Source: Nemertoderma westbladi
Lineage: Eukaryota > Animalia > Xenacoelomorpha
Reading direction: 5' to 3'
Assembly (NCBI GenBank): GCA_032718475.1
Contig: JAUCBJ010006631.1
Span: 26,448-90,447 of the forward strand
Length of the DNA stretch: 64,000 nucleotides
The stretch's first letter is position 1. Every line of letters starts with the position of its first letter. The position numbers and the translations under genes were made by a program. The notes below the pieces were generated by a model. It saw nothing but the letters and a program-made list of their open reading frames with translations, was not told the origin of the DNA and did not search any database. Positions 8,504-31,288 of the stretch are shown here, piece by piece.

Positions 8504-9667
8504 TTAGTCTGAATATTTGAATTTACTTTGTTGTAGAATTCGAACTATAGCAGTAATTCCTTGTTGAAGCACCTTACATCTGTCATTCATATCTGAGGCC
8601 ATAAATTTATCTTCCATTCCTCTGTGTGGACAACCACTGACAAATACAGACCTAAGTCTACGGAACTCCGTAACATCCGCCTTCATTTGTTCCACACCAT
8701 AGACGTTTATGTGGTGGTCGAGTTTTCTGCTGAAGTAATCGTACAGCATGAAGTCAGCCTTGTTGATCTCTTTGAGTTTCTCGGTTTGTTTTGTAGTTAA
8801 ACTTTTAGTTCTTTTATTAATTCTGGGATTTATAGGAATATACACTATATCATCCATCGCCCAACCCATTAACTTCTTTAACAGGATCATTGATTCGTCG
8901 AACCTTTCCATAACCATTACTAACTCGAATTCCTTATCGATGTAGTTAATCGCTTCTTGAATTTCAGAGATATTGGCAGTTCTACTGAACCGAAAACCGA
9001 AATTTAACATCATTGGGTCCCTTAGAGGAAATTCTTTTTTTCCTTTAAAATGGAATTCGTCTGGATTCGCGATAAAATATTCCAAATGTTTATGATTACT
9101 ACAAGGAGGAAGCAATGAACACATGTACTCCATTAAAGACTCGAATTGACGGGAAGGTTCTCTAACGATAGAAACCTTTTTGTAACCCGGTTTCATTAAG
9201 AAGTCCACCGTTGTTTTATTGTATACTGTGTGAAGGTAAATTACATCTATGGTGTTCCTAATTGTACTTTTGTCTTTATCCTTGTAGTTTAACAATAATT
9301 CTGGAACAAAAGGAGTTACCCATTCCACAAAATGAAGAAGCCCTGGTTTTGGCACACCAATCCTCAGATGGTTCCGAATAGCGAACCAAGTCAGTACGGT
9401 ACTCAAGGTTTCACTGCCACATTTATGTTGCTTCAAGAAATATATCCCTGTGGAGTGCTGGGGAAGAGTAGATTCATGAATTATTGTGGTGGCATTGTGT
9501 AAAGTGAGTTTTGTAGAATTAGATAATATTGCTGAATGGTATGAATTATTGTGTTGTACTATTAGATTGTTCGTATAGATATTCTTAGTCAATAGAAATA
9601 ATGAGATATAACATATCGTTGTTAAGATAACCACCTGAGTGCATAGCAATCTGATCTTAGTTGCCAT
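8504..9667 (-). CDS. Galactose-3-O-sulfotransferase family protein (GAL3ST-like), type II membrane, single coding exon
   Basis: 387 aa with an N-terminal TM segment, 5'-PAPS motif FLKQHKCGSETL, 3'-PAPS motif SIVREPSRQFES, and family motifs IDKEFELVMVMERFDESMILLK and NKADFMLYDYF. Confidence 0.9.
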   Translation of the reverse strand: MATKIRLLCTQVVILTTICYISLFLLTKNIYTNNLIVQHNNSYHSAILSNSTKLTLHNATTIIHESTLPQHSTGIYFLKQHKCGSETLSTVLTWFAIRNHLRIGVPKPGLLHFVEWVTPFVPELLLNYKDKDKSTIRNTIDVIYLHTVYNKTTVDFLMKPGYKKVSIVREPSRQFESLMEYMCSLLPPCSNHKHLEYFIANPDEFHFKGKKEFPLRDPMMLNFGFRFSRTANISEIQEAINYIDKEFELVMVMERFDESMILLKKLMGWAMDDIVYIPINPRINKRTKSLTTKQTEKLKEINKADFMLYDYFSRKLDHHINVYGVEQMKADVTEFRRLRSVFVSGCPHRGMEDKFMASDMNDRCKVLQQGITAIVRILQQSKFKYSD

Positions 9668-9884
9668 CAGGAATAATATTAGGAATGTAAGATATTATAC
9701 AAAAGAGTTAAGGTGCTAGTCAAGAGAAAAACAAAGGCCAGCTAAGTGTTTATACAATACAAGATCTATACAGTCTAAACCCGAAATTTATTTATTTATA
9801 TGGAATTAATTTCGCACTATCAAATCGCCATGGTGACATATTTCCCAACTTTATATCGCAGTGTGACATTATTTTTCAGTATGT

Positions 9885-12040
9885 CTGATAAACAACCGCG
9901 ACCTCTATACTAACAGCAGAACTGTTGAACAGACCAATACCCGTTAATATCCTTCTGCCAACCTAATAAGTTCTCGTCTAACCAATAAGACACAAAGACT
10001 GCTCTACTGTTAAGTAAAGGGGATCAGGAGCGTGCTATTACTAAATTGTAAGGGTTGCTAAATACAAAACCGCTACTTATCGTTAGATGGCGCTAATCTG
10101 CCGTCCACTAATATATTTTACTAAATTTACACAACTCCTGCAAAATCGCTTGTTCCTTTCTCTACCGATTGCTCGATAGAGAGCTAACTGTTCGAATCTA
10201 TGAGCCACGCAGGAATAACCAAAACAATAAACCCGAGTCGGCTCCCTAAGCTTACTTAAGACGAGTGCGAGAGGCCTTGCACTCAGAGTATTCTTACGCC
10301 TAATTTTATCACTATTAAAGCACGCTATTACCTACGTCTTTCTAATCGCGAATACTGGAGGTTCCCTAACGTAATGTGTGAATGCGAGAATATTTAAAAT
10401 ATCAAAATGGTACAGTATCTGTTTCTACGTGGATAATACCACTCCGAGTCTAAAACTGCCCGCGACTGGCTTTAGGCCAGCAAAATTACTAGCGTATCGT
10501 GCGTACCGAATAGTGCGTTCTAGCTGATTGCCCGCTAATGCAAATAACCGCTCAGCGTGAATAGTTTACAGTACACTAATTATTACCTTAGCTACTCTCC
10601 GCTATGCTGCGTACTAATTCTTAATTTTTTACTAATTAATTACAGTCACAAATATTTAACAGCGTACTAATTACTAAGAGTTCCAGAATACGTAATTCTA
10701 ATTTATCACGCAACAGGTTTCGCTAGTAATAGCCTAAATTGCCGTATTACTTTGACCTAATCAATAACTAATTATTGTAACTAAGAAATAGAAATCAATC
10801 AAAGGAAAAAGAGCGCCTATCTAAGCATTCGTAATCTTAGGCACACTTCAATAACACACCAATCAGCGTTAGAAATCACAGTTTACAATTGTGCAATTCA
10901 CTACTCGTACTCCACACTCAACGTTGTAATACGCGCAGGCCTCTCCCGGGTACATCTAGGATTCCTAACTAACCCAATTCCTGCCCCCCTAATACTAAAT
11001 AGAGACAAAACCTGGATCATCAGCCCCCTAGATACTGTACCGGCGATCGGTCTGCGTGCCGCAGTGCAAGATACCCGCCCGCAACGGTGACCCTGGCCAG
11101 CGTTGCCCGCTTTGAATCCTCCGCTCTCTCCTAGTCGCTCAACCCCCCGATGCGCCCACCGCCCACTGGCACCTTAGCCCTCCATGATGCTAATAGCTAC
11201 CGTAGCGGCGCATGCAAATCACAAAGTCTGACAGTCTCAGGAATCCCTTGGGATTATTGCGCAGAAAAGAATCACATAGAACCATCAATCAAAGGTAGAA
11301 ATCATAGTTCGATTGTAATTTGCAGTAATCGAAGGAATTATTGAGAAACACAAGCAAAGTAATCGTACTAGCAAATCATTCCAAGAAATTAATCAAAATT
11401 AGCAAATTGCAGAAAATACGATATCCTAATACAAAATTAGAGACAGCTCAGCAAGTAAATTGTAACAGGGGTGTGTCATGTGATAAGGCATGAACATATG
11501 AACAACAAAAGGCCCTACCGGCACACCGCCAATTTATAGGTGATCCCGATGGGGTGATGCAATAAGGTGACTCAATCGCTCTCCCATTGGCTCTCCAGTC
11601 CATGCTAGCATTAAACCAACCTGGAAGCAGTTAATCCAATAAGGAGACCGGATTGTAGCCCTATGCCCTCAAATTATTACCATATATGGTAATGGATCAC
11701 GTCTCTGGCTGCTGAATGGCCAGGACAGCGTCCCTATATGCTAGCCCTATCAAACTAATATCAGCAAGCACAAAATCCAGGGTCCGAGTAAACTCGCTAC
11801 CCTGGAACTATCTACATATATCCTAATACAAAATTACGTAGGTAGGGCTACATACTATACAAAATGAATGGATGCAAAATATATGGGCGTTTTAACTTCC
11901 TTACCTAAATGTCACCACACTGCGCCTTATCTAAATAATTATACTGCACAACGGACTAATATTACGTACAGTATAACGGACTAATACTGCATACTGCATA
12001 ATGGACTAATACTGTGGATACAGCGCCATATACCGTAACA
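9885..12040 (-). repeat. 3' LTR-containing direct repeat (LTR proper possibly 10047-12040)
   Basis: Near-identical to 28523-30752. The minus strand begins TGTTACGG right after the purine-rich GGAGCGG. A candidate other terminus is TGTAAGGG at 10047. Confidence 0.9.
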
Positions 12041-12476: not shown

Positions 12477-15400
12477 TTATCGACCCGCTCCTGGGTTCTT
12501 TGGGCTCGCTCCTCTCTTTCGTCCCCTTCCCAGATACACTAATCTACCTCTAGTCGACTCCGTTGACGGCGTCCGTGAGGCGTCACTCCCCGGAACCGGC
12601 GACGACGTTCCCTGAGCCCCGACAGATTCTCGGCTCGAACTTCTCCCTCGGCCTCGTCCCAATTGTCGCGCTCCCGTGGTCGCTTCCGCCAACTCTTCCT
12701 TCTGCAGTTGCACACGCGCTTTCTCAGACGCCCCCTGCGCCTTGCGCTGCAACCGTTGAGCTTCTATAATGGAGTGGTAGTGGTCGTCCTTGACTTGACG
12801 CTTGTCTTGGACCCCTCCTCCTGGTTCTTTCCGCGAGCCTTGAGCTCCAGCGGTCGTCGCTGTGGTCGCTGCGATCCTTTGTTCCTGTATCCTCTCGGCG
12901 GTCAATGAACCCACTGGCACATGAGTCAACAAGAATTCGTTGCGGTATTGTATAGCCGCCATCCTCCAATCACCTCGCGCGCGTACCACTTTTCTAGTCT
13001 CCGTAAATACACCCTTCGTGATGCGATCGCAAATAGCAACGAAGTTCCATGTGTACTTATTGTCCATGTTCAATTGTCTGAAGTATTCTCGGACTACGAT
13101 AACTCCAGTGTTCTGTGGAAGGTCTTGAGCAGTTAGGATGAGCTCCTGATATTGTGGTAGCGATTGTAGATATGGCTCGTACGCAACATGCGATGGGTCT
13201 ACCGCCCAAAACCCATATCCCGCTTTAAATGGTAACCAACGCATCTGCGCTTGAATATGGTAATCCGCCACACTCTCCCACTTATCTAACATCTCCCGAA
13301 GTAGGTTAGCGCTATGGTTTTGAAAGGAATCATCTCGCAGCTGACATCTCGCGCTACGGTGTCCTTTTACTCCACAATATCCACATTGAGAAATGAAGAC
13401 GGTGCACGTGTGAAACGAATGGTCGGTCTCATTGCACCAACGACAGACCTTATGCGCCGCCTCTATTACCGCGTCGCACGACTTTAGATTGTGCCTTGTG
13501 CTGCCGCACAATTTGCACCTACGCGCTTGTGGAAACCAGGCCCTCTCGTATATGAGGTCTCCAATCGGTTTCGCACTTCCTTCCTTCCCAATGTCTAATA
13601 CGATGTCGTCCTCTCCGGTCAACGGTTGTCGATCCGGAACAAAGTAAACATCCTCGCCCTTGTCCTCTATCTCCAATATTTCCTCCCGCGTTCGTTTCGG
13701 ATATGTCTTCTCCACCGGAAGATCTACTCCGAACACCTCTACTAACGTTTCCGGCCAGCCCTCCTTAACAGGTCTATCAGCCTCCGAGTGGAAGGGAGTA
13801 CCAAACCCGCGGGTTTGATTCCCGAACCACTTCTCCAAAGCTTCTGGCGTCGGATATTCCATCGACGGTCGGTCTCCCAAATCTCCGATGTTCTGTCGAT
13901 ATACTCCTTCGAATATCGCTAATCCTCTCCTCACCATCGACGTATTCTCTAACGATTGGTTGAAGAACGGGGTTAAGAAACGCTTCATCACGTCGGATTG
14001 GATTCCCCCTTTCGAGCGAACGTATTGATCTCCTCCGAATACCAATGGATGACGCTTCAAAACTCGCGCAACGATATCCGCTAATAAACAAGTCACCGTG
14101 TTCGACTCAAGCACCAAATAATATTGTAGCGACGCACGGGGTGGCGCGCAAATGTTCCAATACACTAACGCTTGCCGCTTGAAGTGGGATTTGAACTCCG
14201 CTCCCGGTGGCGTGTTGTATTCGCCATACGCCTCCTCGTACTTCTTTTGCGTCTTCAACTTAAAGTCCCAATTATACAACAAGTGTGCTATAAAGCCCAT
14301 ACCAGTCTTGGCAGAGTTGGGATACTCCCTATAAATTCCAATATCCTGTGCCCATAGCAACAATAGCTTGGTGTCGACAAACGGTCTCGGCAATCTATCT
14401 TCCAGATCAGTCATGGCGTTGAAGTCGCTCTCCAAATCGCTCTGGACTCCCGATCCCACCTTGACGTAATCTTGGTTGAGAATAGCCTCTCTAACCTTCT
14501 TTGGTAACATCCTGGCGTCGATACGCTCCGCTCCGTGCATACCTCCTCGCCTGCATACCTCCAAAATCTGTTCCCTAGGATCCTTCCCTTTCCGATATTG
14601 TGTCGTTATGATGGGCTCCGGTCTCTCTCGATCCGCCCTCACACGCATAAACACATGAGTCACACCATCGGCCGCACGAATTTGAATACACTTGCTAGTC
14701 AAGCATTCCTGATGGGACCCTCCTTCATTGTCGTAGAACATCACTCTCCAATCCTGCAGTGATTCCTCCGTTTTCCTCCACTGACGCTGAATCTCATCTG
14801 ATGGGGTCCACATGCGCTCGATCGCCTTGTGGTCATCATATCGGGTATAAGAACCCTTCCTCCTCAGCCACGTCTGGTCTACTTCCTCGTCATCTGGGAA
14901 TGTAGCCACCGCGACCCATACCTTGATGTACTTATCCAACCATCCGAATAACTTACTCTCCTTCCCCGGAGCTCCAATCTTGTCCAAAGTGTCGTAATCT
15001 GTGATCTGCATTGGGACATCACGCAAGAACTTCGCGCATAAAACTTCCCGTAGACAGTCAACGTTCCAATGGTCCGCCATTCTTACCATCGGCAAGAATC
15101 GTATCGCTTCTCGCGACTCCGGATGATCTACTAATATCGCAGGTTCGGTGCCGTCGGAATAATACACCGGTCCGGGTTGAGATACGACCTGTGGAACAAA
15201 TCCGGTCACTCTCCTCGTCTCCTCTTGATGTCTATCCGCGGTCTTATTATACTCCGCTATCCTGTTCTCAAATAACTCTTTCGCCTTCGCCGCTCGCTCC
15301 TCCTGCCGCAACGCGTCTATGTCGTCCTGATGCTCAGGTGTGAGGCTTCTCACTCGGTGAGGTGAAGTAAACGCAGTCCAGGGACTCGAGAGCTCCAAAC

Positions 15401-16184
15401 CCACGGGTTTGGTACCCGAGTCCCGCGCCGCTTCGCGCCGCGCCTCTAGATCCTTGTAGGCTCGGTACAGCGAAATGGCCGCTGCCGTCTCTATCAAACT
15501 GGGTGTCGAACAGGGTTTAATCTCCGTATACGGATCTAATGTCGTAACGGTCGGCGTAATGGGTCTCGGAGGTCGCTTTCCGCTGAAGTCGATACTGATC
15601 ATCGGGTTGCTCATCGGGTAACCTCCCTCGTTGTATCTAAGGAATTGGTGAGCTGGACATCGCGTTAATATCGGTTCCGGATGTTGCTCGTCTAATCGGT
15701 CGGGAATCGCCACGTCCTGTTTATTCATGCATTCACCACACTTGTAGAAGAGCTTGTATACGCTGAAGACTTTCGGCGTCTCCTGATCCTCGCCTCGAGT
15801 CCTCCGATACAGGTGCATTCCGTCGAACTGGTCTCGGACTGCAGGTAGAGGCTCCTCGTGTCGTAAATACATATTCATATGGTATAGTCGTGCGATTTCC
15901 TCGTCCGGATCTGCGCTAATGTCGCACACGTCCAAAGCAAAGTCGTAGGGATACCGCGTGCGATACTCTCTCCGCAAGACTTCCATCCGGTCCCCCAACG
16001 CTCTCATTCTTTCTCTCCGTAATTCTTTATCATAACTTGGTTTATACTTCCCGTTCAGCTCCATCACGGACCGCCCATGGTAGTAAACGTTAGAGTCTTT
16101 ACATCCTGGTCGCGCGAATGGTAGCTCCGCCTCCTCTCTGGCAGTAAATCCTCTGCGCGGTTGCGCTCTAATATCCCTCTCCAT
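12477..16184 (-). CDS. Retrotransposon ORF3, 1235 aa: putative DEDDy 3'-5' exonuclease domain, three CCHC zinc knuckles and a basic RG-rich tail
   Basis: Intact ORF between integrase and the 3' LTR. Motifs VMFYDNEG / CIQIR / LPKKVREAILNQDYVKVGSGVQSD / FVDT / W...LQYYLVLE. Knuckles CKLCGSTRHNLKSC, CRWCNETDHSFHTC and CGYCGVKGHRSARC. No obvious signal peptide or TM anchor. Confidence 0.75.
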   Translation of the reverse strand: MERDIRAQPRRGFTAREEAELPFARPGCKDSNVYYHGRSVMELNGKYKPSYDKELRRERMRALGDRMEVLRREYRTRYPYDFALDVCDISADPDEEIARLYHMNMYLRHEEPLPAVRDQFDGMHLYRRTRGEDQETPKVFSVYKLFYKCGECMNKQDVAIPDRLDEQHPEPILTRCPAHQFLRYNEGGYPMSNPMISIDFSGKRPPRPITPTVTTLDPYTEIKPCSTPSLIETAAAISLYRAYKDLEARREAARDSGTKPVGLELSSPWTAFTSPHRVRSLTPEHQDDIDALRQEERAAKAKELFENRIAEYNKTADRHQEETRRVTGFVPQVVSQPGPVYYSDGTEPAILVDHPESREAIRFLPMVRMADHWNVDCLREVLCAKFLRDVPMQITDYDTLDKIGAPGKESKLFGWLDKYIKVWVAVATFPDDEEVDQTWLRRKGSYTRYDDHKAIERMWTPSDEIQRQWRKTEESLQDWRVMFYDNEGGSHQECLTSKCIQIRAADGVTHVFMRVRADRERPEPIITTQYRKGKDPREQILEVCRRGGMHGAERIDARMLPKKVREAILNQDYVKVGSGVQSDLESDFNAMTDLEDRLPRPFVDTKLLLLWAQDIGIYREYPNSAKTGMGFIAHLLYNWDFKLKTQKKYEEAYGEYNTPPGAEFKSHFKRQALVYWNICAPPRASLQYYLVLESNTVTCLLADIVARVLKRHPLVFGGDQYVRSKGGIQSDVMKRFLTPFFNQSLENTSMVRRGLAIFEGVYRQNIGDLGDRPSMEYPTPEALEKWFGNQTRGFGTPFHSEADRPVKEGWPETLVEVFGVDLPVEKTYPKRTREEILEIEDKGEDVYFVPDRQPLTGEDDIVLDIGKEGSAKPIGDLIYERAWFPQARRCKLCGSTRHNLKSCDAVIEAAHKVCRWCNETDHSFHTCTVFISQCGYCGVKGHRSARCQLRDDSFQNHSANLLREMLDKWESVADYHIQAQMRWLPFKAGYGFWAVDPSHVAYEPYLQSLPQYQELILTAQDLPQNTGVIVVREYFRQLNMDNKYTWNFVAICDRITKGVFTETRKVVRARGDWRMAAIQYRNEFLLTHVPVGSLTAERIQEQRIAATTATTAGAQGSRKEPGGGVQDKRQVKDDHYHSIIEAQRLQRKAQGASEKARVQLQKEELAEATTGARQLGRGRGRSSSRESVGAQGTSSPVPGSDASRTPSTESTRGRLVYLGRGRKRGASPKNPGAGR

Positions 16185-18750
16185 TATGTTACGCGTATAT
16201 ACATATATATATATCCCAATAAGTGCCGTTACGTAACCAATTACACTGTGGGTAAATCAGTTAGATGTCGCCGAAAGACAGACCTCCCGAACCCCCCCGC
16301 CTTCCAGCAGTTCAGGTTCGACTCTCTAGATCCCGTCTCTTCCTAACTAACTATCCTCTAACCTATTCCCATGCATAGCGCAAAAACTTTGGAGATAAAC
16401 TGGCCGTGACCAACTCACTTTTTGATGCCCAAACTACTCCCATTACTCGTACTAAACTACAGTAGTTAGAAAGGACCATAGCCACAATACTCGACTATAC
16501 CAAACCCACAGGTTTGATAATCGAACATCACACATCCTGCAAACTACTGAGTGGGATCCGTGCACCCCTCTGGTGCTACTAACCTTTAGCACCTTAGTTG
16601 CACTGTTGGCACCAATCTGTGGAAGTTGCTAAACTCAATTTACACTCCTACGTAATATAGCCGTCACCATGGTTTCTAAATGCTATTTTCCAGGCTTCAC
16701 GACTTTTCAAATTACTGTTTATCTATAGACGAATTCTAAAACGCGTCTATACACAGCGTCTGGAATTGTCTTGGGTTCACTTCTAATTTTTAAAATTTTC
16801 TAATTTTTTCCAAAATTTTGAAATAAAATTTTGTTTTGATACCCACCAGACAAAACTCAATGCAAATCACCACAACCCCGCTCCTATGCATTTCCTTGTA
16901 TTTGCATACGAGGAATGCATACGAAGTGAGTTGCGTCCAACACTAATTCAGTTTTGAGGCAGGAGACAAATTATAATCTCCCGTCTCGATACGTGTCTCC
17001 TCTAATAACACAATATCTTGGACCGGTCGGTCCAAGGTGTGTAAACCATTAGTTTTACACTTTTTTGGGTGCGGACACTTGCACCTAATTTTCACAGTGA
17101 CTGTGCGCACTATGTTTTGCACGTCTGGGTGTGTGTGCAAGATCACTCCCGTCTCCCAATACTTTCTCTTGACAATGGGTTCGGTTATCAACACGTAATC
17201 TCCCCTTTGGAGACTCCGAACCGTCTTGTACCACTTTGTTCTGGTGGATATGGTGGGAAGATAGTATTCCCGCCAATATTCCCAGAATGTGTACGCCACA
17301 AACTGTGTTACTTTCCAGCTCTTACGACTATATAGGTCGGCACTAATGGGTTCTGATGCCGGCACAAGAAATGCTGGACTCTGCATTAGCAAATGATTCG
17401 GCGTTAATGCAACACCGTCTGGCAACATAGCTATCGGCCTCGAGTTTAGGGTATGCTCGATTTCAATAAAAGCTGTGACCAGTTAGTCGTCGGTAAGTTG
17501 TTTGTTCACAGGCAATGTTTTGGCAATGGCCTGCTTCACAGAGCGAACTAAACGCTCCCAACTTCCTCCTCTCCAAGGACTTTCTGGAGTATTGAATCTC
17601 CATTCTACTCGTTGCGGCAAAAGTGCTGCAGAAATTTCCTTATTCTGTGCTGCTTTATGAGCCGCGTTCAACTCGCTATTCCCTCCGACAAAGTTTGTAC
17701 CCTTGTCAGAGTAGAACGCCTTTACTAGTCCTCTCCTGGCCATAAATCTCTTTAAGGCCAGGAGCAGAGATTTGGTCGACATGTCTGCCACACGCTCGAT
17801 GTGTATGGCTCTACTAGCCATACATGTCAGTAGCAGACCCCATCGCTTGTGGGTCAGCCGTCCACTCTTTGCTTCAATCGGACCAAAACAGTCCACCCCT
17901 GTATTCGTAAAGGGTGGGTCATATGCCTGCACTCTCGCTTCTGGGAGTTCAGCCATCTCCTGTTCCAATACTCTGGCGTTCACTCTCTTGCAAACCAGAC
18001 AGGCGTCGTACATAGTGCCTACTGCCCTGCTTGGCTGCAATAGAATGAATCGCTGTCTCGCTGCCGACAGACAGTGTAACTTTCCCGCGTGATGCAACCT
18101 CTTGTGTATATCCCATAGAATCGCTCTTTGCAATTCTATTGGGTGACTAGGGATTATCACTGGGAACCTAAACTGTGAGTTTATGTCGACAGTCTGGATT
18201 CTCGATCTATGACAAATTAAACCCTTATGGATTAATGGACTCCATTTTCTAAGGGGTTTATAGAGAACTGGTCGATGAGCCGATAATAGATGGAATTCTT
18301 TCGGGAAGGCACACATTTGATAATGCTTCAAATGCTTTAATTCCGCTTGATCAATCTCATCCTCTGCCAGAGGTTGTTTCAATTTCTGAATTCGCTCACT
18401 ATTGGTGCTCAATGGTTCTCTCAAATGTTTCGAATGTTTTAAACAAAGGTACGAAACGTATCGGCTTAACCACGCAGTTCTTTTACAAATTGTCAGCCAA
18501 GAGGCAGACGAATTTAGTAATTTGTCATAAATACTGCATGACTCTAATGCCAGCGACGGTTGTCCGCTAACTAATGGAAGTTTCGAATCCAAACCCGCAG
18601 GTTTGGAAACCAAAGACTCCATTGTGTCGGTCATTTTCTGTCCGTCACTTACCAATTGTGACTGTCGTCTAGTCTGTAAGGGTGGTTTTATGTCATAACT
18701 TACCCTTCCTGACCTAGTAGTCACGTAAGTCTGTTGATCTGACAGGTCTC

Positions 18751-18853
18751 CAGGCCGCTCCAATGACTCTTCAGGCCGCTCCAATGACTCTTCAGGCCGC
18801 TCCAATGACTCTTCAGGCCGCTCCAATGACTCTTCAGGCCGCTCCAATGACTT
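18751..18853. repeat. In-frame 21-bp tandem repeat (SLERPEE)n in the pol RNase H-integrase linker
   Basis: caggccgctccaatgactctt repeated ~5 times. Confidence 0.9.
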
Positions 18854-21800
18854 AAGTTTGGCTTTAGACTTCGACTTAGAGACTTTCTCCACTTTGACTT
18901 CTGCATCTTCAGGCATCGGATTGGTCACTATCTTTAGTCGCTCTGGCCAATGTTCCTGTGTCCTCGTTAGAAAATCAGGTCCATGCAACCAAAACTCCTG
19001 CGACTCTTCCCGACAGAATTCCGCCGGCATTGCACCTCTCGAAGTTATGTCGGCCGGGTTCAACACTCCCGGACAATGTCTCCATTGTTCCTTCGTCGAA
19101 AAATCAACGATCTGAGCGCGTCTATTGGCCACAAATGTCTTTAGTGCAATATTGTCGGCCGCAATGTATACTAACACCAAGGATGCGTCCGTCCAATAGA
19201 ATAAGGTCAATGTCGTGTCTAACTCCTCAGTTATTTGCTTACTTACCTCGACCGAAACTACAGCCGCCTGTAACTCTGCACGAGGGACAGTCATATATTT
19301 GACCGGCATTGTCTTTGATCTAGAAGTCACAAAGGCCGTCTCAAATTTGTCCTGACTTACCTCTCGGCGAAGGTAGGCTACCATACCAAAGCCGGTGTCA
19401 CTTGCGTCACTAAATAAGTGGAGCTCGAGATCAGCTGGGAATACCAGCTGATTCGGAAAGTAGGAACGGGGTACATCTATGTTTTTCAATAGATGTAACT
19501 CGGCTTCCCACTCCCTCCACTGCTTTGCATGTATAGGAGATATTGGTTCGTCCCACTCTAAGTCGGACAACCAAATTTTCCTCATGCACGCTCGTGCCTG
19601 TAATATTACCGGACTGATAAAGTTCATCGGGTCAAATAGTCTACTTAATGTCGATAAGCAAATCCTCTTTGTCAAAACTTTGTCTGGGCTACTGGGCTCA
19701 AATCTAACTCTTACCTGGAACTTATCCGAGTTCGGATTCCAAGCGAGTCCCAGTACTCGCGCCATGGGGATTGGTTCTACCCCCAATTCTATGTCTCCGC
19801 TCCCGCGATCTTTTACCGGGAACGATTCTAATAGGGCCTCCGAATTAGTAGTGAACTTGGTCAGAGGAAATCCCCCTGTAGCCAAGCACTCTTGCAGGCC
19901 GTGAGCCACTTCTATGGCTTGTTCCGCTGTGTCCTTGGACACCAATCCGTCGTCCATATAGAAGTTTCTCAAGATGGACTCGATTACTTCTACTGGGTAC
20001 TTACCAATCTGGGCTGTTGCCGTTTTCTTTAGAACGAACAGCGTGCCATTCGGACTATCGCGGGCGCCAAATATCCTAACGTACATTTGGTATGTAACCA
20101 CTGGGCCGGATAAGTCTTCATTCTCGTACCAGAGAAATCGAAGGCTATCCTGGTCTGCCTTACAGGCTCTTACCTGGTGGAACATCGCCTCGATGTCACA
20201 AGTAAATGCGAATCGCCGCTGTCTAAAACGCAACAGTATTCCAATCAAATAGTTATTCAGGTTGGGACCATCCATCAACTCTGAATTCAGGGACATACCT
20301 CTATAGACTGCTGCGCAGTCGTTGACTACTCGGACTTTGTCTGGCTTGTCAGGGTGAGTCACATAGTGGTGTGGAAGGTAATAAGTCTGGTCTGTCACTA
20401 AGTCAGGGTCCTCTACCTTCCCAGCAAATCCCTTGGCGAAATAGTTGTTGATCTGGGCGCAATACTTCTCCCTAATGCCTGGATTCTTCAACAACCGAGC
20501 CCTTACTCCGTTTAATCTTTTCAAGGCTAAGCTGTAGTTGTTCTCCAACTTAGGTGGTTGTCGACGCCACAACATTCCAACTTCAAAATGTCCAGTCGGT
20601 AGTAGACGTATGGTATCTTCCATCATCTCCAGCGACCGCTTCTCATCAGTAGACATGGCTAGGTCATATCCACCGGGTTCCATTGCGTCCCTGTCCAGCC
20701 ATTCGACGGTTCTGGCTCCTGTCTCGAGGTCCTGGCGTATCAATTCCTTCTGCAATTCCTCCTCACTGTATTGGAAAATGTCTAGGTCTCGATATTTAGC
20801 CACTTGACCCTCCACTATGTCTGTATAAGTCAAAACGTTAGTCAAATAGGTAGCGTGGGCCGCTGAACCAGACCCACGGGTCTGATAACAGTAGTCCTCG
20901 GGTTCACTATCTGTCCGGTTGTTATGAAGTGGTTCCGACAACCTAACATTATCAGGAATCAACTCCTCGTCCGACTCGCTAAAGTCACTATAGTGGTCAA
21001 TACAGGTTCTCCTAAACTCGTCTATGTCTGGTGGTTCTACTAACGGTGGTTGAATTATAGGCTGTAATTCATCGTATCTGTCCATTGGCTTGTCGCCACC
21101 TGTAAACTCATAAGACATGGGTACTCGTGTATACCAACCTAGTATAGTCCTATGGGCATGTGGTCCATTGACATGCGGCTCAGCTGGTCTCGTTTCCCAT
21201 ATCTGGTGTGCGATCAGCTGTTCTGCACCAATCAACATAGAAACATTCCTATAACCTACCTGGTGTCTGGGTATCCTGAGCTTGTCAAAATACTCCTGTG
21301 CTATGGGACTCATCGGCGGCACCTTACCTAACTGCCTGCCGAATCCCTTCATAGCTAGACACTTAAATCCGTCCAATGGCAAAGCTTTCCGTTCTTGTCG
21401 AGTGTGTTGGTCTCTCGGAAGTAGGGAATCTAGTTCCACCGAAATTCTGTGTCCCTTGAGGTCTCCTACCCCATGCATAGACTTCAACTCTATTTGGATC
21501 TCCTCGGCGTCCTGGAAGCTAGAAACGGCTCTCGCCACTTCCTCGTCGATATAAGATAATGTGGACGCAGTGTCCAACATCACATATATTCGCTTCGATC
21601 CCTTATCGCCAGTGAGTTTCACCGGAATCACGCTAAATATTTCCGACGTGGCCGATGATAAATACGTCCGCGCGCTGGTCGATGAACTATCCGCGGTGAA
21701 ACCTTGGCAGGTCACTTCTCTCGCGCTCGACTCGCCATCCTCGTCCGACGAACCTGGTTGGTAACCATCGTCCTGGATGCCAGTGTACGTATTCCTCCTT

Positions 21801-23989
21801 ATCGATACGGGTTCTTTGCTCCCCTTCCTTTGAGGATTTCGCTGTAAGTAACGGTCCGTTGGGGTGTGGAAATCCGCATGTAGCAACTTGTGATGTAGTC
21901 TGCCGCATTCCATGCATCCGTCCTTGCTGTTCGGGCACTGCCGCCGTACATGACCTGGCGCAAGACATGCCCAACAGGTGTCCAACGTCCGCACTTGAAC
22001 TCTTCTCTGTTCCGAATTTAATTCTTTGAACCGTCTGCAACTATCTAACTTATGGTCGTCAGATCTTACCTCCTTTAGTAAACAGTATTGGCAACCTACA
22101 AATCCATCCGGCAACTCCTGTTGCTTTAACCTAGGTCTATCTAACCGCTCACCTGACCATACTCGCGAGTCTGATCTAAAGGCTGGGGTATTCGAATTAT
22201 ATCTGTCTACTGAGTTAAATGTCACAGTGGTCCTGTCATCGTCAAAACTTACCATAGACTTACCGGTAACAGGTTTAGACTCCCTCATATTCTCTTCTGA
22301 GAAGTTTGATTTCATCTCTGCTACTGCGTCTGTGGCTATCATGTCATGAATATGCTGAAGTGTCAATACTTTACCTTGGCCCTCCAACTTATTCTCTAAT
22401 TTGCGCCATTTCTGTCTGTAACGCATGTTTAAACGTCTTATTACGCTTTTCAAAACTTCGGCGTGATCACCATGATGAGGTAGATTCACCGTCCTCAAGA
22501 TGTCCAATGCGTTCGAAATAGCGTTCGCTAAGTTCAACAGCTCTAACGGAGTTGTAATCCTTCCGCCCTTACCCAAGTCTTCTACTATCGACTGCGCCAT
22601 CTTGGTTTTATTCCCGTAGATGTCATTAAGCGTCTTCATCGCTAACTCAAATGCTCTTTCATTGCCGACGAAATTATCAGCAATGGCTCTAGGTTCTCGA
22701 TGGAGCATCTGAAGCAAATAGTTGAACTTTTCGTTGGGAGTAAAGGTGCTGTTGGTTAGCTGCTCGTCGATATAGGTTTTGAAGGTCCTCCAATGTTTAT
22801 GGTTACCCATAAACTTCTGGGGTTGCTGCGTCGGCAGTCCTTGCCTAGCAGCAAACTTACCTATGTCCCTAAGGGTTGCGTCGTTCCGGGTTAACAAATG
22901 GTTTAGTTCCGCAGGGTTGTTAAGTCTGGTCCTTTCCCGGTGGTTCCAACTTACCTGCTCCGCGTCCGTCCTTCTTTCCTTATAGTTTCGGGACTTCTGA
23001 CGTCTCATTTCTTCCTCTTCATCGCTTGACTCAGTGTCAGTCCTTAGCGCTCACGATGGTTTGCGCGCCGAGGCCCTGACCCAAGCTTCCTCAATAAATC
23101 TTTCTGCCGAATTTTCGAAATTGGGATTATGGATATTCGGGACAGGCGTCCTTACCTGAGGTCTATGTGGTATAGTCTCCTCCGATATGCGTACTCGTTG
23201 ACTAGGCTGGACTTTATCTAACTCAGGCCTGCTAGGATTAGAATTACTTCTTACCTGGGCTGCTTCCTTTAACCGTAGGTTGCTAAGCATGTCCGTTATA
23301 GGTTGGATGTGCGGCGATATAGCTTGCGCTAAACTAGCACTTAACTCATCCCTCGTAATAAATTCCTGGCTAGGGTTCTGTTGTATAGTCGGCTCTATCT
23401 GAGTAATCCGCTGTCTCTCATATGATCCCTCTTCCGGTTTAACCCGGAAGTTCTCCGTCGAACTAGGTCGGCGCTCCGTCCGCGTATTCCAAACCCGCGG
23501 GTTCGGTTCGCCAAGTACTCGTCCTGTCGGAGTTTCTTCTCTAAATTCTCCGTTGTCGCGTTCGGTGTATAGTGGTGCAGTGTTCCGATGACGTAGATCC
23601 TGCGCGATAGGTGAAGCACTAATACCAACTGGCGTGCGATATGTAGAGAACGGTTTAACGATCCGTGTACTCGTAATAGCTGGACCGGGTATAGGAATTC
23701 TGGTCGTCGTTGACTCGCGTATAGCCGGAGTTCTCGCTTCCTGTTCGGCCTTCTGCAGTGCGAACAGTTCTCGCAACTCTGTCCCCACACTCGCCCCACA
23801 TTCTTCGAGCATTCGCATCCCCTTCTCGGCGATTTCGTTCGCCTTCCTAGTCCGTTCTTCGCTCTCTAAACTTAATCTCGCACTTTCCAACTGCGCCAGT
23901 TTACGCTCTTCTTCTTCCCTCGCTCGTCTCGCTGCGCTCTCTTCTTCCACTCGCGCCTTTTCTTCATACAATGCGCGTCTTCTTTTCTC

Positions 23990-24280
23990 GATCTCGAGTT
24001 CGCGTTCCTTGCGTCCGCGTTCGAGTTGAAGCTCGCGCTCCTTCTGTTCACGATCGAGTTTCTTGCGCTCGCGTTCGGCTTGGAGTTCGCGTTTCTTCGC
24101 TTCCTGTTCGCGTTCGAGTTGGAGTTTGCGTTTCTTCGCTTCCCGTTCGCATTCAAGTTGGAGTTCGCGTTTCTTCGCTTCCCGTTCGCATTCGAGTTGG
24201 AGTTCGCGTTCTCTCTGTTCGCATTCGAGTTCCTCGCGCTTGCGCTCGGCTTGGAGTTCACGTTCCCTTTGCTCGCGTTC
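23990..24280. repeat. 33-bp coding repeats (RELQLECEREAK-like) in the gag coiled coil
   Basis: Recurrent gttggagttcgcgtttcttcgcttcc units. Confidence 0.8.
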
Positions 24281-25769
24281 CGCTCGCTCGCGCTTACTTA
24301 TCTCTTCCAACTCTCGTAACTCTGCGTCCAACTTACGTGTGCGCTCCCGTTCCCGCTCGGCTTCCTTCCGTGCTTCCTGTGCACGCAAAACTTCCGCCTG
24401 CTGTTCGTCTAGTCGGCGTCTTCTCTCCTCCGCCGAGTTGTGAGAAACAAGGGATCTAGCACATATTACCTTACCTCGCGCGTGACTAACCTGGGAATCG
24501 CCGCTGTCTCTAGATGCGTCGTCGGGTGGAGTCAACGTCCTCTGTTGAATGTTCTCCGTCGTCGGTAGCACCTGGCCTGGTACCACCACTCCATTCTGCA
24601 TCAGCCAGCTAGTAACTTCCCTCTGATAACGGCGCTCTTCCTTATCTTGGATCTCTTCCCGCTCCACTAACTCTCTCAACTCTGCGTCACTCACTTGAGT
24701 CGCCTGCGTTTGTGATGCCCATAGCAGCCAGTTCTCCGTCCTAACTCGTCGGAATCGCTCCGATAACTCGCGGTGCTCTAACAAGGCTGCTAAAACCCTG
24801 TCGTAAATCCTCGTTGCTACGTCGCTCGACTGAGACTCTAATGCCTTCTTCGCTAGGACTGCAAGCTCCTCTGTCTGCTTGAATAACGCTGAGTTATATC
24901 CTCTTCTAATCTCTACTAACTCTACCCTCCCGATGTTCGCTGAATCAGCTAACATCTTCCTTACCTTGTCTGCCGTCCGAGTTATATGTCCGGCATGCGT
25001 GCGAAGTTTCTTCTTTATCGCGATATCAAGTTCTCTCTCGCTTACCTGACTCACACTTGGTGGACTTGAAGGATTATTTCGGGAACTACGGGTACTCCTA
25101 ACAGCCGTCGGGACCACGGCACTTACCATACCCACAGGTCTGGAAACCGGGCTCCGGGCTCTCGCTTCTACTACACTACCCTCCCTATCACTCACCTCTG
25201 TCCGGGCTGCCGTACAGTCCTTCCTATCAGTAGCGGTAGGGGGTCCTAATACTATTACCTGAGGCTGCTGTTCTTCCTCACTAGTCACTGTCTCGTCCTC
25301 CTGTTCACTTACGTCAGCGTCGCTCGCTGCGTCGTCATAGTCGGCATTGTCATCAACAGTAATATTTACGCTATCGTCAGTCGGCGGTCCAGCCACCGTC
25401 TCATAGCTGTCCTCTAGTGCCTCTTTGTCTGAGACACTCATAGTCTAAATAATATTTGCCTTCCGGCAAAAATCTCGCAAAAGTTCGAGATATAATTATA
25501 ATTTAACCGAAATACGGTCAAATTATTTGTCAAATAATCAGTTGGTCCAAATGTCAAATAAATTCGCAATGCAATATTGTGAATTTAATGGGGTATATAG
25601 TTATAGCAAATACTAACACAATATTTAAACAAAAAATATTATTATATAGCTACTATATAGTATTAAATACCGGTATAGCACAAAATAACTTTGAATCTAA
25701 TACAAAATATTCAAAATAAACTTGCCACCCGAATATTTCTAATTTTATATATATAGCTCCAATCAACGT

Positions 25770-27554
25770 GGCATGGCATGGAAATCGATCAATCTGCTTA
25801 CTGGGCGGAAAAGCCAACCAACCACCAAGGTTAAGGCTGAATCACCAGCCGATCGCCTCAATGGTTGGAAAGCCCACTTTGAAAAGCTCCTCAATAATGA
25901 CAGGGTATTGCCTGATAACTTTATAGAAGTAAAAGTGTCTGAGTCTGTACTCCCAGATATTCCCATTGGCGATATCTCCTTTGCAGAAGTGAAGGCTGCT
26001 GCAAAGAGCATTAAGACCAATCGTGCCAGTGGAGTAGATGGTGTTCCCCCTGAGGTCTTTAAAATACCTGAGTGTCTAAAGCTCATCTATCCCATCATAG
26101 TAGACATGTACCGTACAACAAGAGTCCCACAAGAAATGAAAACAAATAAGTTGGTGCCAGTTCCCAAGAAGGGCAACCTAACACTCTATGGTTCTTTTCG
26201 GGGAATCTCATTGATCTCGATTGCTGCAAAACTATACAATAGAATTCTATTAAATCGCATCAGGGATCCCATTGAGAGACTGCTACGTGGAAATCAGAAT
26301 GGGTTCCGTAAAGGTCGTGGGACCATGGAGCCCATTTTGGCACTTAGAAGGATAATTGAAGAGTTATCAAAAAAGAAAGACAGGCATCTGGCTGTTATCT
26401 TTGTTGACTTCTTCAAGGCCTTTGATTCAGTCTCTCGCTCACGTATGTTCAGCATACTTTCATTATATGGGATTCCTGATGAAATTATTGCAGCAATCAG
26501 ATCAGTATACGATGGTTCGACAACATTTGTGTCTACTGTTGACGGTGACACAGAACCATTTGAAGTGTTATGGGGCGTCCTCCAAGGAGACACACTTGCA
26601 CCATTCTTGTTCATTATTGTGGTTGACTATGTTCTACGCATGTCCTTAGATCATCATAATGATGATGGGGTGATGATAACTCCACCTACTGGCTCCAGAA
26701 GTCGAGGAAATCCTGCCAAGTACCTAACTGATCTAGACTTTGCTGATGACTTAGGAGTACTCTCAGAATCATTAGAGGGAGCCCAGCGGCTCCTCAGCTC
26801 ATTAGAACATGCTGCTTCTAGTGTTGGTCTTTTTATTAACTCCAGAAAGACCAAAATTCTGACAGTTAACTTTGAAAGTCCTCAGCAAGTCTCTGATCGG
26901 ATGAGCATAAGCTCAAAGGATGGTATGCTTGAGCATGTGGACGACTTCTGTTACCTGGGATCATGGATCCGGAAGTCAGGTGAGGACCTTCGAATACGTA
27001 AGGGAAAGGCATGGGCAGCCTTGAATAGGCTTTCCAGGATTTGGAAGTCACCTAGAATTAATCGGAAACTTAAGGTCCGATTATTTAGAGCAGCAGTAGT
27101 TCCAGTACTCCTCTACGGGAGTCCATGCTGGGCTCTAACTGCTGAGGACACCAAATCTCTGGATGGCACATTCACAAGAATGCTACGCCGGGTACATTGT
27201 GTCAAGTACAATGCACACATCTCCAACCAGACACTATATAACATTGGAGGTGTCTCATTGGTTCCCCCAAGCTTGACACTAGAACAAAATCGCCTCCGCT
27301 TTGCAGGACATTGCTTTCGCCGTGAGGACCAGCCAGTGCATAATCTTGTACTTTGGCAGCCTCATGGAGTGAATAAGCATGGTGGACAGCCCATGACTTT
27401 CTTGAGACGCATCTTAAAGGACACTGGCCTTAAAGATGCGGATGATCTAGCAAATGTCATGGGTGATAGGGAGTTGTGGCGGCGCAATTTTGTTGACAAG
27501 CCGGCACAGCATTCTTAAAAATGCAGCTGCAATGCAGCATGCCGATCCTAGTAG
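25770..27554 (+). mobile_element. 5'-truncated RTE-clade LINE with 12-bp TSD
   Basis: TSD tccaatcaacgt at 25758-25769 and 27555-27566; short (tag)n tail; open RT frame. Confidence 0.93.
25773..27518 (+). CDS. RTE reverse transcriptase (N-terminally truncated ORF, no endonuclease)
   Basis: Motifs PKKGN, FRGISL, QNGFRKGR, FVDFFKAFDSV, GVLQGDTLAPFLF, LDFADD, FCYLGS, RLRFAGHC. Confidence 0.9.
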   Translation: MAWKSINLLTGRKSQPTTKVKAESPADRLNGWKAHFEKLLNNDRVLPDNFIEVKVSESVLPDIPIGDISFAEVKAAAKSIKTNRASGVDGVPPEVFKIPECLKLIYPIIVDMYRTTRVPQEMKTNKLVPVPKKGNLTLYGSFRGISLISIAAKLYNRILLNRIRDPIERLLRGNQNGFRKGRGTMEPILALRRIIEELSKKKDRHLAVIFVDFFKAFDSVSRSRMFSILSLYGIPDEIIAAIRSVYDGSTTFVSTVDGDTEPFEVLWGVLQGDTLAPFLFIIVVDYVLRMSLDHHNDDGVMITPPTGSRSRGNPAKYLTDLDFADDLGVLSESLEGAQRLLSSLEHAASSVGLFINSRKTKILTVNFESPQQVSDRMSISSKDGMLEHVDDFCYLGSWIRKSGEDLRIRKGKAWAALNRLSRIWKSPRINRKLKVRLFRAAVVPVLLYGSPCWALTAEDTKSLDGTFTRMLRRVHCVKYNAHISNQTLYNIGGVSLVPPSLTLEQNRLRFAGHCFRREDQPVHNLVLWQPHGVNKHGGQPMTFLRRILKDTGLKDADDLANVMGDRELWRRNFVDKPAQHS

Positions 27555-28522
27555 TCCAATCAACGTAATTTTAATTTCAAATATTATATGTATCCACTAG
27601 CGCGTGGCTACATCTTCGGGTTGCGACTCTCTCTAACTCTCTCTCTAACTTGAGCGATTCAAAAAACCATGGCCGGCTAAACCTAAATATCCTAACTAAT
27701 AAATTGAGTTCAGCTTCGCAGTTAAACAACCGGTAATTTTTTACTGCTTCCACAAACACACTGGTGCCAACAGAACAACTAACCTTGTTTGCTGTGAGAT
27801 TCCACGTCCGCGTCCAAAGATTCAGGCCCTTCGCTGATTGCAAACCGAACCCGCAGACCCACACGAACCCCAAACTCAGAAGTTCCGTCTTGCCATGTAT
27901 CTCCAGATGGTATAAAATAACTAAGCGGTTACCTAACATACCGGTACAAAACTCTAGAATTTTACAAAATAATTTTGACCGAAAACTGAATTCTCGCAAA
28001 CCTAGCTAAAATTTTCAAAAAACTTACTAATTACAATTCGCCCTAAGGCCTAAGGAACTGCTGTATTCGCAATTAGCAAAAACGCACTACCGTACATTCA
28101 CTGTATGTAGTATAGTAAGTAAAACAGTACACCAACCTAACAGCCTAATGATACTGTGTGTGTGGTACGGCAAACAAATGTCCTTCTACCGTCCGCAGTA
28201 ACAACAATCAGCCTAATGTACTACTGTACTATTGTACGCAGCCAGTGAATACAGTAATCTAAACTAGCAACCTAATAGAATAAACTCAATGTCTTACTGT
28301 ACGCTAGCCTATAGCCTACAGCAGACGATCACGTGCTCTAACTTATTACTTAATACTGTGATACTACTAATCAGCCTAAGAATACTCTATTGACTGTACG
28401 CTACAGCCTACAGCCAATAAATCGCGTATTACTGATACGAAGTATCAGTAATCTAAACTAACAGCCTAAGAATACTCTATTTACTGTACGCTACAGCCTA
28501 CAGCAAACAAGTGCGCGTATTA

Positions 28523-30752
28523 CTGATAAACAACCGCGACCTCTATACTAACAGCAGAACTGTTGAACAGACCAATACCCGTTAATATCCTTCTGCCAAC
28601 CTAATAAGTTCTCGTCTAACCAATAAGACACAAAGACTGCTCTACTGTTAAGTAAAGGGGCTCAGGAGCGTGATATTACTAAATTGTAAGGGTTGCTAAA
28701 TACAAACCGCTACTTACCGTTAGATGGCGCTAATCTGCCGTCCGCTAATATATTTTACTAAATTTACACAACTCCTGCAAAATCGCTTGTTCCTTTCTCT
28801 ACCGATTGCTCGATAGAGAGCTAACTGTTCGAATCTATGAGCCACGCAGGAATAACCAAAACAATAAACCCGAGTCGGCTCCCTAAGCTTACTTAAGACG
28901 AGTGCGAGAGGCCTTGCACTCAGAGTATTCTTACGCCTAATTCTATCACTATTAAAGCACGCTATTACCTACGTCTTTCTAATCGCGAATACTGGAGGTT
29001 CCCTAACGTAATGTGTGAATGCGAGAATATTTAAAATATCAAAATGGTACAGTATCTGTTTCTACGTGGATAATACCACTCCGAGTCTAAAACTGCCCGC
29101 GACTGGCTTTAGGCCAGCAAAATTACTAGCGTATCGTGCGTACCGAATAGTGCGTTCTAGCTGATTGCCCGCTAATGCAAATAACCGCTCAGCGTGAATA
29201 GTTTACAGTACACTAATTATTACCTTAGCTACTCTCCGCTATGCTGCGTACTAATTCTTAATTTTTTACTAATTAATTACAGTCACAAATATTTAACAGC
29301 GTACTAATTACTAAGAGTTCCAGAATACGTAATTCTAATTTATCACGCAACAGGTTTCGCTAGTAATAGCCTAAATTGCCGTATTACTTTGACCTAATCA
29401 ATAACTAATTATTGTAACTAAGAAATAGAAATCAATCAAAGGAAAAAGAGCGCCTATCTAAGCATTCGTAATCTTAGGCACACTTCAATAACACACCAAT
29501 CAGCGTTAGAAATCACAGTTTACAATTGTGCAATTCACTACTCGTACTCCACACTCAACGTTGTAATACGCGCAGGCCTCTCCCGGGTACATCTAGGATT
29601 CCTAACTAACCCAATTCCTGCCCCCCTAATACTAAATAGAGACAAAACCTGGATCATCAGCCCCCTAGATACTGTACCGGCGATCGGTCTGCGTGCCGCA
29701 GTGCAAGATACCCGCCCGCAACGGTGACCCTGGCCAGCGTTGCCCGCTTTGAATCCTCCGCTCTCTCCTAGTCGCTCAACCCCCCGATGCGCCCACCGCC
29801 CACTGGCACCTTAGCCCTCCATGATGCTAATAGCTACCGTAGCGGCGCATGCAAATCACAAAGTCTGACAGTCTCAGGAATCCCTTGGGATTATTGCGCA
29901 GAAAAGAATCACATAGAACCATCAATCAAAGGTAGAAATCATAGTTCGATTGTAATTTGCAGTAATCGAAGGAATTATTGAGAAACACAAGCAAAGTAAT
30001 CGTACTAGCAAATCATTCCAAGAAATTAATCAAAATTAGCAAATTGCAGAAAATACGATATCCTAATACAAAATTAGAGACAGCTCAGCAAGTAAATTGT
30101 AACAGGGGTGTGTCATGTGATAAGGCATGAACATATGAACAACAAAAGGCCCTACCGGCACACCGCCAATTTATAGGTGATCCCGATGGGGTGATGCAAT
30201 AAGGTGACTCAATCGCTCTCCCATTGGCTCTCCAGTCCATGCTAGCATTAAACCAACCTGGAAGCAGTTAATCCAATAAGGAGACCGGATTGTAGCCCTA
30301 TGCCCTCAAATTATTACCATATATGGTAATGGATCACGTCTCTGGCTGCTGAATGGCCAGGACAGCGTCCCTATATGCTAGCCCTATCAAACTAATATCA
30401 GCAAGCACAAAATCCAGGGTCCGAGTAAACTCGCTACCCTGGAACTATCTACATATATCCTAATACAAAATTACGTAGGTAGGGCTACATACTATACAAA
30501 ATGAATGGATGCAAAATATATGGGCGTTTTAACTTCCTTACCTAAATGTCACCACACTGCGCCTTATCTAAATAATTATACTGCACAACGGACTAATATT
30601 ACGTACAGTATAACGGACTAATACTGCATACTGCATAATGGACTAATACTGCATACTGCATAATGGACTAATACTGCATACTGCATAATGGACTAATACT
30701 GCATACTGCATAATGGACTAATACTGTGGATACAGCGCCATATACCGTAACA
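28523..30752 (-). repeat. 5' LTR-containing direct repeat (LTR proper possibly 28685-30752)
   Basis: Matches 9885-12040 apart from a few substitutions, a 1-bp indel and three extra 25-bp units (atggactaatactgcatactgcata). Confidence 0.9.
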
Positions 30753-31288
30753 ATACTGATGGAGGAAATCGCCTCCCTGGTGAAGGAAAAAAATAGTTTA
30801 TGTGGTGTCTTGTGCGTAGCCTCACACGCCATTGACGTCAGTCTTATATGTGTGCATATGTAATGCAGGATCTACATAATATTGCAGTTGTAAGATTCAT
30901 CTTTTGCAGTTGCAAAACGAGAGCCTGAATTGTTGACAGCAATACACCGTTAAATTTATCACATTGGCCATTTCCTCTTTGGATTGTAGGCTCTAGTTTT
31001 AGATTTGTTTACTCCAATTGATTGCAACCATAACTGAAGTTCTCTGGAAATCAACTGTCGCCCTCGATCAGAGTGAACATTTCCAGCAATACCGTATCGG
31101 TAGAAAAATCTCTGTAGTTGTTCTCTGACAGTAGCTGTTCTAATTGAGTCGACAACTTCTGCTTCAATGAATCTTGAGTATTCGTCAATTATAGTAAATA
31201 TGTATTTGTTACCACCTGCTGTAGATTTGGGTCCAATAAAATCCACTGAAATACGTTCCATAGGTCTAGAGGCCTTCACAACTTCGCC
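30753..31288 (-). pseudogene. Gypsy/Ty3 integrase fragment
   Basis: PMERISVDFIGP...IIDEYSRF...VHSDRGRQL...AYNP; frameshifted; cut by the BEL LTR on one side and Zator on the other. Confidence 0.8.

Follow-up and report, generated by a model that had tools for sequence, protein, structure and literature searches.

Juno and Vesta are retrotransposons with long terminal repeats (LTRs) and belong to the Ty3/Gypsy type. Together with the Terminons, these elements of bdelloid rotifers carry a third open reading frame (ORF3) of the DEDDy exonuclease type (PMC5408684; PMC6431247), as the original prediction for the present locus had noted for rotifer LTR elements. The rotifer ORF3s are spliced and display a DEDD-to-DEED change, with neither demonstrated activity nor a significant departure from neutrality (PMC5408684). 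The Belpaoviridae profile of the International Committee on Taxonomy of Viruses (ICTV) describes elements of 4.2-10 kb with LTRs of 0.2-1.2 kb (PMC8742986). In the present study, we describe a giant BEL/Pao element in a 64,000-nucleotide (nt) stretch of Nemertoderma westbladi DNA (the window; GenBank assembly GCA_032718475.1, contig JAUCBJ010006631.1, positions 26,448 to 90,447 of the forward strand). Its third gene, also termed ORF3, is genuine and, by evolutionary criteria, functional; its reading frame, place in the element, zinc knuckles, lack of a membrane anchor and selection are directly established. The encoded protein probably contains a divergent DnaQ-like exonuclease domain.

ORF3 (12477..16184, minus strand) is an intact frame of 1235 amino acid residues, located between the end of the integrase (16943) and the inner end of the 3' LTR (12040). 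Its stop-to-stop frame covers 12477-16256 with an ATG at 16184, and 300 shufflings of this DNA give frames of at most 269 residues. The protein contains three CX2CX4HX4C zinc knuckles (13344..13517, minus strand; residues 890-903, 914-927 and 934-947), a pattern that occurs once in 7 of 20000 protein shuffles and two or more times in none of 20000. Among PDB sequences, the knuckles yield weak matches to Lin28 (E 0.59 and 1.6). A low-complexity basic tail with GRGRGR and GRGRKRG motifs, recognized by sequence and composition, covers residues ~1100-1235 (12480..12887, minus strand). In the N-terminal part of the protein, where residues 1-300 have no Pfam match, a CxxC motif (residues 149-152) and a CxxH motif (residues 176-179) may constitute a zinc site (15648..15740, minus strand), as far as sequence alone can suggest. 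The original prediction of an intact non-env ORF3 with triple knuckles holds, and every motif that it quoted is found in its place: YDNEG starts at residue 484 (14735), CIQIR at 499, LPKKV at 560, AILNQDYVKVGSGVQSD at 567, FVDT at 602, GMGFIAHLL at 628, LQYYLVLE at 686 (14129) and GRGRGR at 1176.

ORF3 occupies the position of env, which would be compatible with an env gene or with a recently captured host gene that is carried as neutral cargo. However, the protein has no hydrophobic anchor or transmembrane stretch (highest 19-residue hydropathy, 1.34) and no env fusion-protein match at a significant E-value in Pfam or among PDB sequences. Word-indexed searches also identified no relative, host relatives included, either for residues 380-1100 among 4952 scored candidates (proteins of 679-2162 residues) or for the 350-residue domain among 1365 (192-613 residues); these searches require shared short words, and the collections are largely prokaryotic. 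Five weak plasmid matches to ORF3 (E 0.1-5) were rejected, and a VP4 match among PDB sequences was dismissed as chance.

The cargo explanation is further contradicted by the variation among copies of the element. Selection was judged from contig variant tables, which favor common variants, rather than by a formal dN/dS calculation; six runs from four studies cover the window wholly or partly, and one of them may be the source of the window. Contig pieces over the element, ORF3 included, number in the thousands and come from two runs, and some are only ~85% alike over the nuclease-like region. Between positions 14030 and 14790, 38 of the 40 variants listed (from a total of 57) are synonymous, compared with an expectation of ~31% (21-34% depending on transition bias). 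The corresponding ratio of nonsynonymous to synonymous polymorphism (pN/pS) is ~0.02, and counting every one of the 17 unlisted rows as nonsynonymous would raise it to 0.14-0.26. Over the whole of ORF3, 21 of the 25 listed variants are synonymous, with four rows common to both sets, and no insertion or deletion falls in the nuclease-like domain among the variants listed. As a control, 8 of the 10 gag-pol differences private to the window copy are nonsynonymous; a difference is private if nearly all of the other copies agree with one another and differ from the window copy, in which it thus arose. Among the copies, ORF3 is subject to strong purifying selection, and the signal lies far beyond chance; selection among copies was one of the checks suggested with the original prediction. 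Because variants among copies are overwhelmingly synonymous, ORF3 is not neutral cargo. With strong selection among copies, some of them only ~85% alike over the domain, the env or cargo explanation is largely refuted and highly improbable. Low-depth contigs omit the ORF3 parts 12971-13796, 14312-16296 and 15709-16039, and internally deleted copies therefore exist. Contig depth is lower over ORF3 than over pol in runs X1 and X3, a measure that cannot rank genes; no run is labelled as RNA, although X4 might be.

The likely DnaQ-like domain, of the PF01612 type, spans residues 478-712 (14049..14753, minus strand) and includes an insertion of ~35-40 residues. The reference sets for PF01612 were built from bacterial RNase D, short RNase D-like proteins, PolA and WRN/EXD2-like proteins, and three sequences were excluded from the reference alignments (L097 and L116 for a wrong frame and L155 for a stop). 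In a global hhalign comparison, residues 470-725 align with the mixed RNase D/PolA/WRN-like profile with a score of 22.6 and a P value of 2.7e-4, at an HH probability of 18.6%; the best of 40 shuffles scores 11.2, and none of the 40 reaches 22.6. The alignment, which was not guided, pairs YDNEG with FDTE (ExoI), IQIRA with IQLA (the IQ strand), LP..V..AI...YVKVG.G...D with ExoII, PRPFVDT with the next (DT) strand and GMGFIA with the G-hydrophobic helix, and this is the order of the family. When the profile is scanned over 41 windows of ORF3, the highest score, 21.1, falls on the window starting at residue 481, compared with maxima of 12.7 in 118 windows from 8 other frames and 12.8 in 218 windows from unrelated proteins without exonuclease overlap (336 controls in all). 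For the latter set, 256 of 494 windows were first removed as exonuclease-positive by score, a step that can lower the tail of the null distribution, and 20 of the remaining 238 overlapped exonuclease domains and were set aside.

Two further approaches bear on the putative catalytic residues. In local HMMER comparisons, three of six profiles give single-comparison E-values of 0.0025-0.005, values attained by 0 of 1000, 2 of 2000 and 1 of 2000 shuffled sequences. Both of the alignments inspected place the match on residues 557-585, and our own profiles score 2-6 bits. In a MAFFT alignment, D485, E487 and D583 each occupy a column that does not vary among 33 bacterial members. The ExoI D-x-E motif is thus found at the end of its strand, with D485 and E487 (14732-14724) on the invariant aspartate and glutamate in both hhalign and MAFFT, and the ExoII aspartate D583 (14438-14436) is found after the KVG strand within the local match, which HMMER and hhalign share.

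These observations must be weighed against a substantial body of negative results. ORF3 has no significant match to any family in Pfam, NCBIfam or PHROGs, nor to any exonuclease among PDB sequences, and in the Pfam check proposed with the original prediction, neither the whole frame nor the domain gives a match at E-values up to 1. Because the Pfam cut-off fails, ORF3 resembles PF01612 rather than being a tested member. No relative of ORF3 was found in the collections searched, which included metagenomes, prokaryotes, viral contigs and an exact look-up. The HH probability of the mixed-profile alignment is the best obtained and drops to 2.5% against the WRN-like set alone, the other three of the six HMMER profiles gave nothing useful, and a colinear, gap-tolerant block-chain test of the motifs is not significant in any of eight settings. 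In addition, the family was selected for testing only once the original prediction had named it, so that among ~25000 families searched blindly a P value of 2.7e-4 would not be remarkable.

Structure prediction of the domain, the second check proposed at that time, is no more favorable. The single-sequence fold failed (predicted local distance difference test, pLDDT, 33.7) and retrieved no exonuclease, although the order of secondary structure in this unreliable model, with strands at residues 480-484, 490-494 and 510-514 followed by helices, fits the fold. An AlphaFold model obtained from a forced alignment to known exonucleases has a mean pLDDT of 54.8 and matches the DnaQ fold with Z up to 8.0 and a root-mean-square deviation of ~4, but these matches are circular because the input alignment imposed the known exonucleases. 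The last helix of this model lies in the ExoIII slot, with D155 of RNase D opposite S694, beside E693; this placement was discounted, as four end columns impose the same register.

The missing library match, the low HH probability, the negative block test and the failed unaided fold raise the possibility that ORF3 is a selected gene whose resemblance to exonucleases arose by chance, and that it encodes a nucleic acid-binding protein of another or unknown fold. This explanation has to accommodate five motifs in the family order, a score ~10 above the 336 control windows and the strand and helix order of the unaided model, unreliable as that model is, and we consider it improbable. On balance, residues 478-712 probably hold a DnaQ-like domain, and the nuclease reading is moderately supported by the alignments and more likely right than wrong. 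Of the DEDDy exonuclease that was originally put forward as putative, ExoI, the IQ strand, ExoII, FVDT and GMGFIA are recovered in order, whereas a library match is missing and the proposed ExoIII motif, YLVLE, is not aligned.

Is the domain catalytically active? ExoIII is the weakest point, being aligned by no automatic method, and YLVLE would have a glutamate in place of the aspartate. No clear YxxxD motif is seen in the domain. The candidates for the fourth acid are E693 (14108-14106), which forms Y689-x3-E693, and D703 (14078-14076), and MAFFT puts the motif at residues 654-658. The failure of the alignments to place the fourth acid and the tyrosine would be expected of a pseudo-nuclease, in which the DnaQ fold is kept but, as in EXD1, Maelstrom and Egalitarian, holds RNA or a host protein with no cleavage, and serves in RNA export, in transport or as a decoy. 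EXD1 and Maelstrom are named as inactive derivatives (PMC5408684), and CERV of Cer1 exemplifies an accessory protein of an LTR element that is required for RNA export (PMC10309623). However, three of the four acids of ORF3 lie at their expected places, and neither these residues (D485, E487 and D583) nor either ExoIII candidate is altered among the variants listed. From the sequence, we put the chance that the domain is active at about even, and a binding function without cutting appears unlikely as the full account of ORF3.

How might such a protein serve a retrotransposon? As our best explanation, held tentatively and at somewhat less than even odds, we propose that ORF3 is an accessory gene maintained by selection in a BEL/Pao family that is young and present in many copies, and that it encodes a likely divergent DnaQ-like 3'-5' exoribonuclease, which would trim or block host small silencing RNAs. 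The mechanism itself is an inference. ORF3 would be expressed from its own spliced or subgenomic RNA, given that 11 ATGs precede ORF3 after the integrase stop and that the rotifer ORF3s are spliced (PMC5408684). The three knuckles and the basic RG tail would hold the protein on single-stranded RNA, the zinc knuckles being the reason to suppose an RNA substrate, and a two-metal site formed by D485, E487 and D583 together with E693 or D703 would attack 3' ends. The targets would be small silencing RNAs of the host, which would be trimmed or blocked in a counter-defense. The combination of knuckles and RG motifs is a common feature of germ-granule proteins, and RG motifs are bound by Tudor proteins. 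In Mut-7 and Nibbler, small RNAs are likewise trimmed by a domain of the DnaQ-like fold (PMC11347159). For both reasons, we infer a small-RNA target and regard counter-defense as the likeliest use of ORF3; we give roughly half that likelihood to processing or proofreading within the particle, and the same to binding with no cleavage. A more specific version, in which an active Nibbler- or Mut-7-like exonuclease with knuckles and an RG tail mimics germ-granule proteins and is kept because it disarms host silencing by PIWI-interacting or small interfering RNAs, would be doubtful on present evidence.

The element that carries ORF3 spans 20,874 nt, or ~19 kb without a nested frame of 1776 nt described below. 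Its LTRs, at 9879-12014 and 28517-30651, are 99.6% identical over 2136 nt by blastn, indicating that the insertion is young. Beyond the aligned part, ~100 nt more are found at the outer end, where a 25-nt tandem unit is expanded in the 5' LTR. The 5' LTR (28517..30752, minus strand; ~2.2 kb), delimited by blastn and a repeat listing, starts with TGTTACGG, and the 3' LTR (9879..12040, minus strand; ~2.16 kb) has a clear inner end and an outer end that is uncertain by a few bases. All eight differences over 9879-12014 lie within the first 430 nt (9879-10306 versus 28517-28944), and the remaining 1.7 kb is identical; this clustering may reflect conversion or template switching. By eye, no target-site duplication of 4-6 bp is seen at the element ends, and the flanks 9874-9882 and 30753-30758 are reverse complements (CAGTAT / ATACTG) rather than a direct duplication. 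No TGG-type primer site is seen by eye beside the 5' LTR, whose inner end runs into a 73-nt repeat. A ~73-90-nt unit is present in 3-4 copies at window positions 28252-28528, which start at the inner end of the 5' LTR and extend into the leader, the region expected to hold the primer site. In the spacer between integrase and ORF3 (16200-16940), a part looks by eye like an inverted counterpart of the leader sequence near 27700-27760, a similarity unreported by blastn at E 1e-4.

The size of the element and its ends bear on a further explanation, in which ORF3 acts as a DnaQ-like nuclease in the particle of the element itself, where it trims element RNA or primers, or mismatched 3' ends of the complementary DNA, and is brought in on genomic RNA by the knuckles. 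The knuckles have the spacing of retroviral nucleocapsid proteins, no canonical primer site is evident, and 3'-end processing has been proposed for the rotifer ORFs by Rodriguez et al. 2017 (PMC5408684). Moreover, the element is about twice the ICTV range (PMC8742986), recalling the proofreading ExoN of large nidovirus genomes (PMC7968707). Nevertheless, ORF3 is not fused to Pol, ORF3 and its spacer themselves make up ~4.9 kb of the extra length, and packaging and a lower error rate are without support. We therefore consider a role in the particle unlikely, and continue to prefer counter-defense.

The assignment of the element to BEL/Pao, made in the original prediction, is borne out by the polyprotein, in which Pfam identifies DUF1759, Peptidase_A17 (E 4.5e-39), Integrase_H2C2, rve and DUF5641 in this order. 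By its content of DUF1759, Peptidase_A17, integrase and DUF5641, the element belongs to BEL/Pao. This order of pol domains of the BEL/Pao type is accompanied by LDTAS and YMDD motifs and by two long terminal direct repeats, which exceed the ICTV length range. The N-terminal part of gag-pol (23051..25444, minus strand; 797 residues) consists of charged, coiled-coil-like repeats in which no Pfam family exceeds the cut-off and ends at an in-frame stop (23051-23053). The main part (17483..23050, minus strand; 1855 residues) contains DUF1759, three Cys/His motifs, the protease-like LDTAS, the reverse transcriptase (RT) motif YMDD, Peptidase_A17 and the integrase up to a second in-frame stop (17483-17485), and the C-terminal part of the integrase with DUF5641 (E 6.1e-18, Pfam) follows at 16943..17482 on the minus strand. 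Gag-pol is interrupted by these two stops, as originally noted. The codon at 17483-17485 differs in other copies (runs X1, X3 and X6), and the stop at 23051-23053 is absent among the 40 variant rows listed of 972. Integrase and RT queries found no match in viral contigs, the integrase query retrieved only two distant pieces from metagenomes, and for L182 there is no ORF3 within 3 kb downstream.

Between the 5' LTR and gag lies a long interspersed nuclear element (LINE)-type reverse transcriptase frame (25743..27518, plus strand; RVT_1, E 7.9e-29, and DUF6451 in Pfam). It is open throughout its 591 codons on the strand opposite to the element and is likely a nested insertion; a piece of it recurs in the window at 5880-6021 with 85% identity. 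Elsewhere in the window, an intact single-frame galactose-3-O-sulfotransferase gene (8504-9694, minus strand; Pfam E 1e-42) starts ~200 nt from the 3' LTR. Two further BEL/Pao elements, at 41855-44020 (minus strand) and 50083-53828 (plus strand), are older and broken, and tblastn finds no ORF3 in either. Two frames of 259 and 435 residues at 31701-34025 (plus strand), in which no Pfam family exceeds the cut-off, are probably the broken gene of a DNA transposon or a similar element.

Extra genes of BEL/Pao elements have been described as env-like and of unknown function, and ORF3 is a large non-env gene with clear selection. Evidence of such selection, which the rotifer exonuclease ORFs lack, provides a good handle on what captured nucleases are used for, be it counter-defense, RNA processing or fidelity. 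If the proposed function is true, ORF3 would be a retrotransposon-encoded enzymatic suppressor of the small-RNA defense of an animal; if the nuclease call fails, it stays a selected orphan gene with no relative in the collections searched. Giant BEL/Pao elements may also be under-counted, because the size of the present element is about twice the family range and above the 15-kb upper bound on element size that one genome survey used (PMC3118150).

Compared with the Belpaoviridae, the element has the expected order of gag, protease, RT, RNase H region and integrase with the BEL/Pao Pfam markers, and it has LTRs. It differs in its length (20.9 kb versus 4.2-10 kb), in its LTRs (2.2 kb versus 0.2-1.2 kb; PMC8742986), in a third gene that is not env-like and in that neither a tRNA primer site nor a target-site duplication was found by eye. 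In the literature searched, no BEL/Pao element with an exonuclease gene was found; Repbase, GyDB, subscription papers and supplements lie outside that literature and may hold one. With the PF01612 nucleases (RNase D, Rrp6, WRN-exo, EXD2 and Mut-7/Nibbler; EXD2 active site, PMC6648332), ORF3 shares the order of the ExoI D-x-E, the IQ strand, LP..L..L....KVG...D, the DT strand and the G-hydrophobic helix. In contrast to these enzymes, its domain is only 9-20% identical in the alignment, contains the insertion and lacks a clear YxxxD, and the protein has the added knuckles and no HRDC match. Dada DNA transposons likewise carry a DnaQ-like DEDDy exonuclease, but theirs sits inside the DDE transposase, keeps all four acids and is presumed to work on the ends of DNA (PMC3706591).

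The closest counterparts are the ORF3s of Juno, Vesta and the Terminons. Like these, the present ORF3 is a separate non-env frame downstream of pol with an RNase D-like domain and no transmembrane region, and the D-to-E change of the rotifer DEED set has a candidate equivalent here. The rotifer ORFs give clear HHpred matches and the present ORF3 a borderline one, in a comparison made by description only. Unlike the rotifer genes, the present ORF3 resides in a BEL/Pao carrier; it includes three CCHC knuckles together with an RG tail and ~470 N-terminal residues without assignment, and it is under strong purifying selection, where none is detectable in rotifers. Judged from its sequence, ORF3 is more likely than not to be a third gene of the captured-nuclease type known from rotifers, with the giant BEL/Pao carrier, the three knuckles and the selection as its new features.

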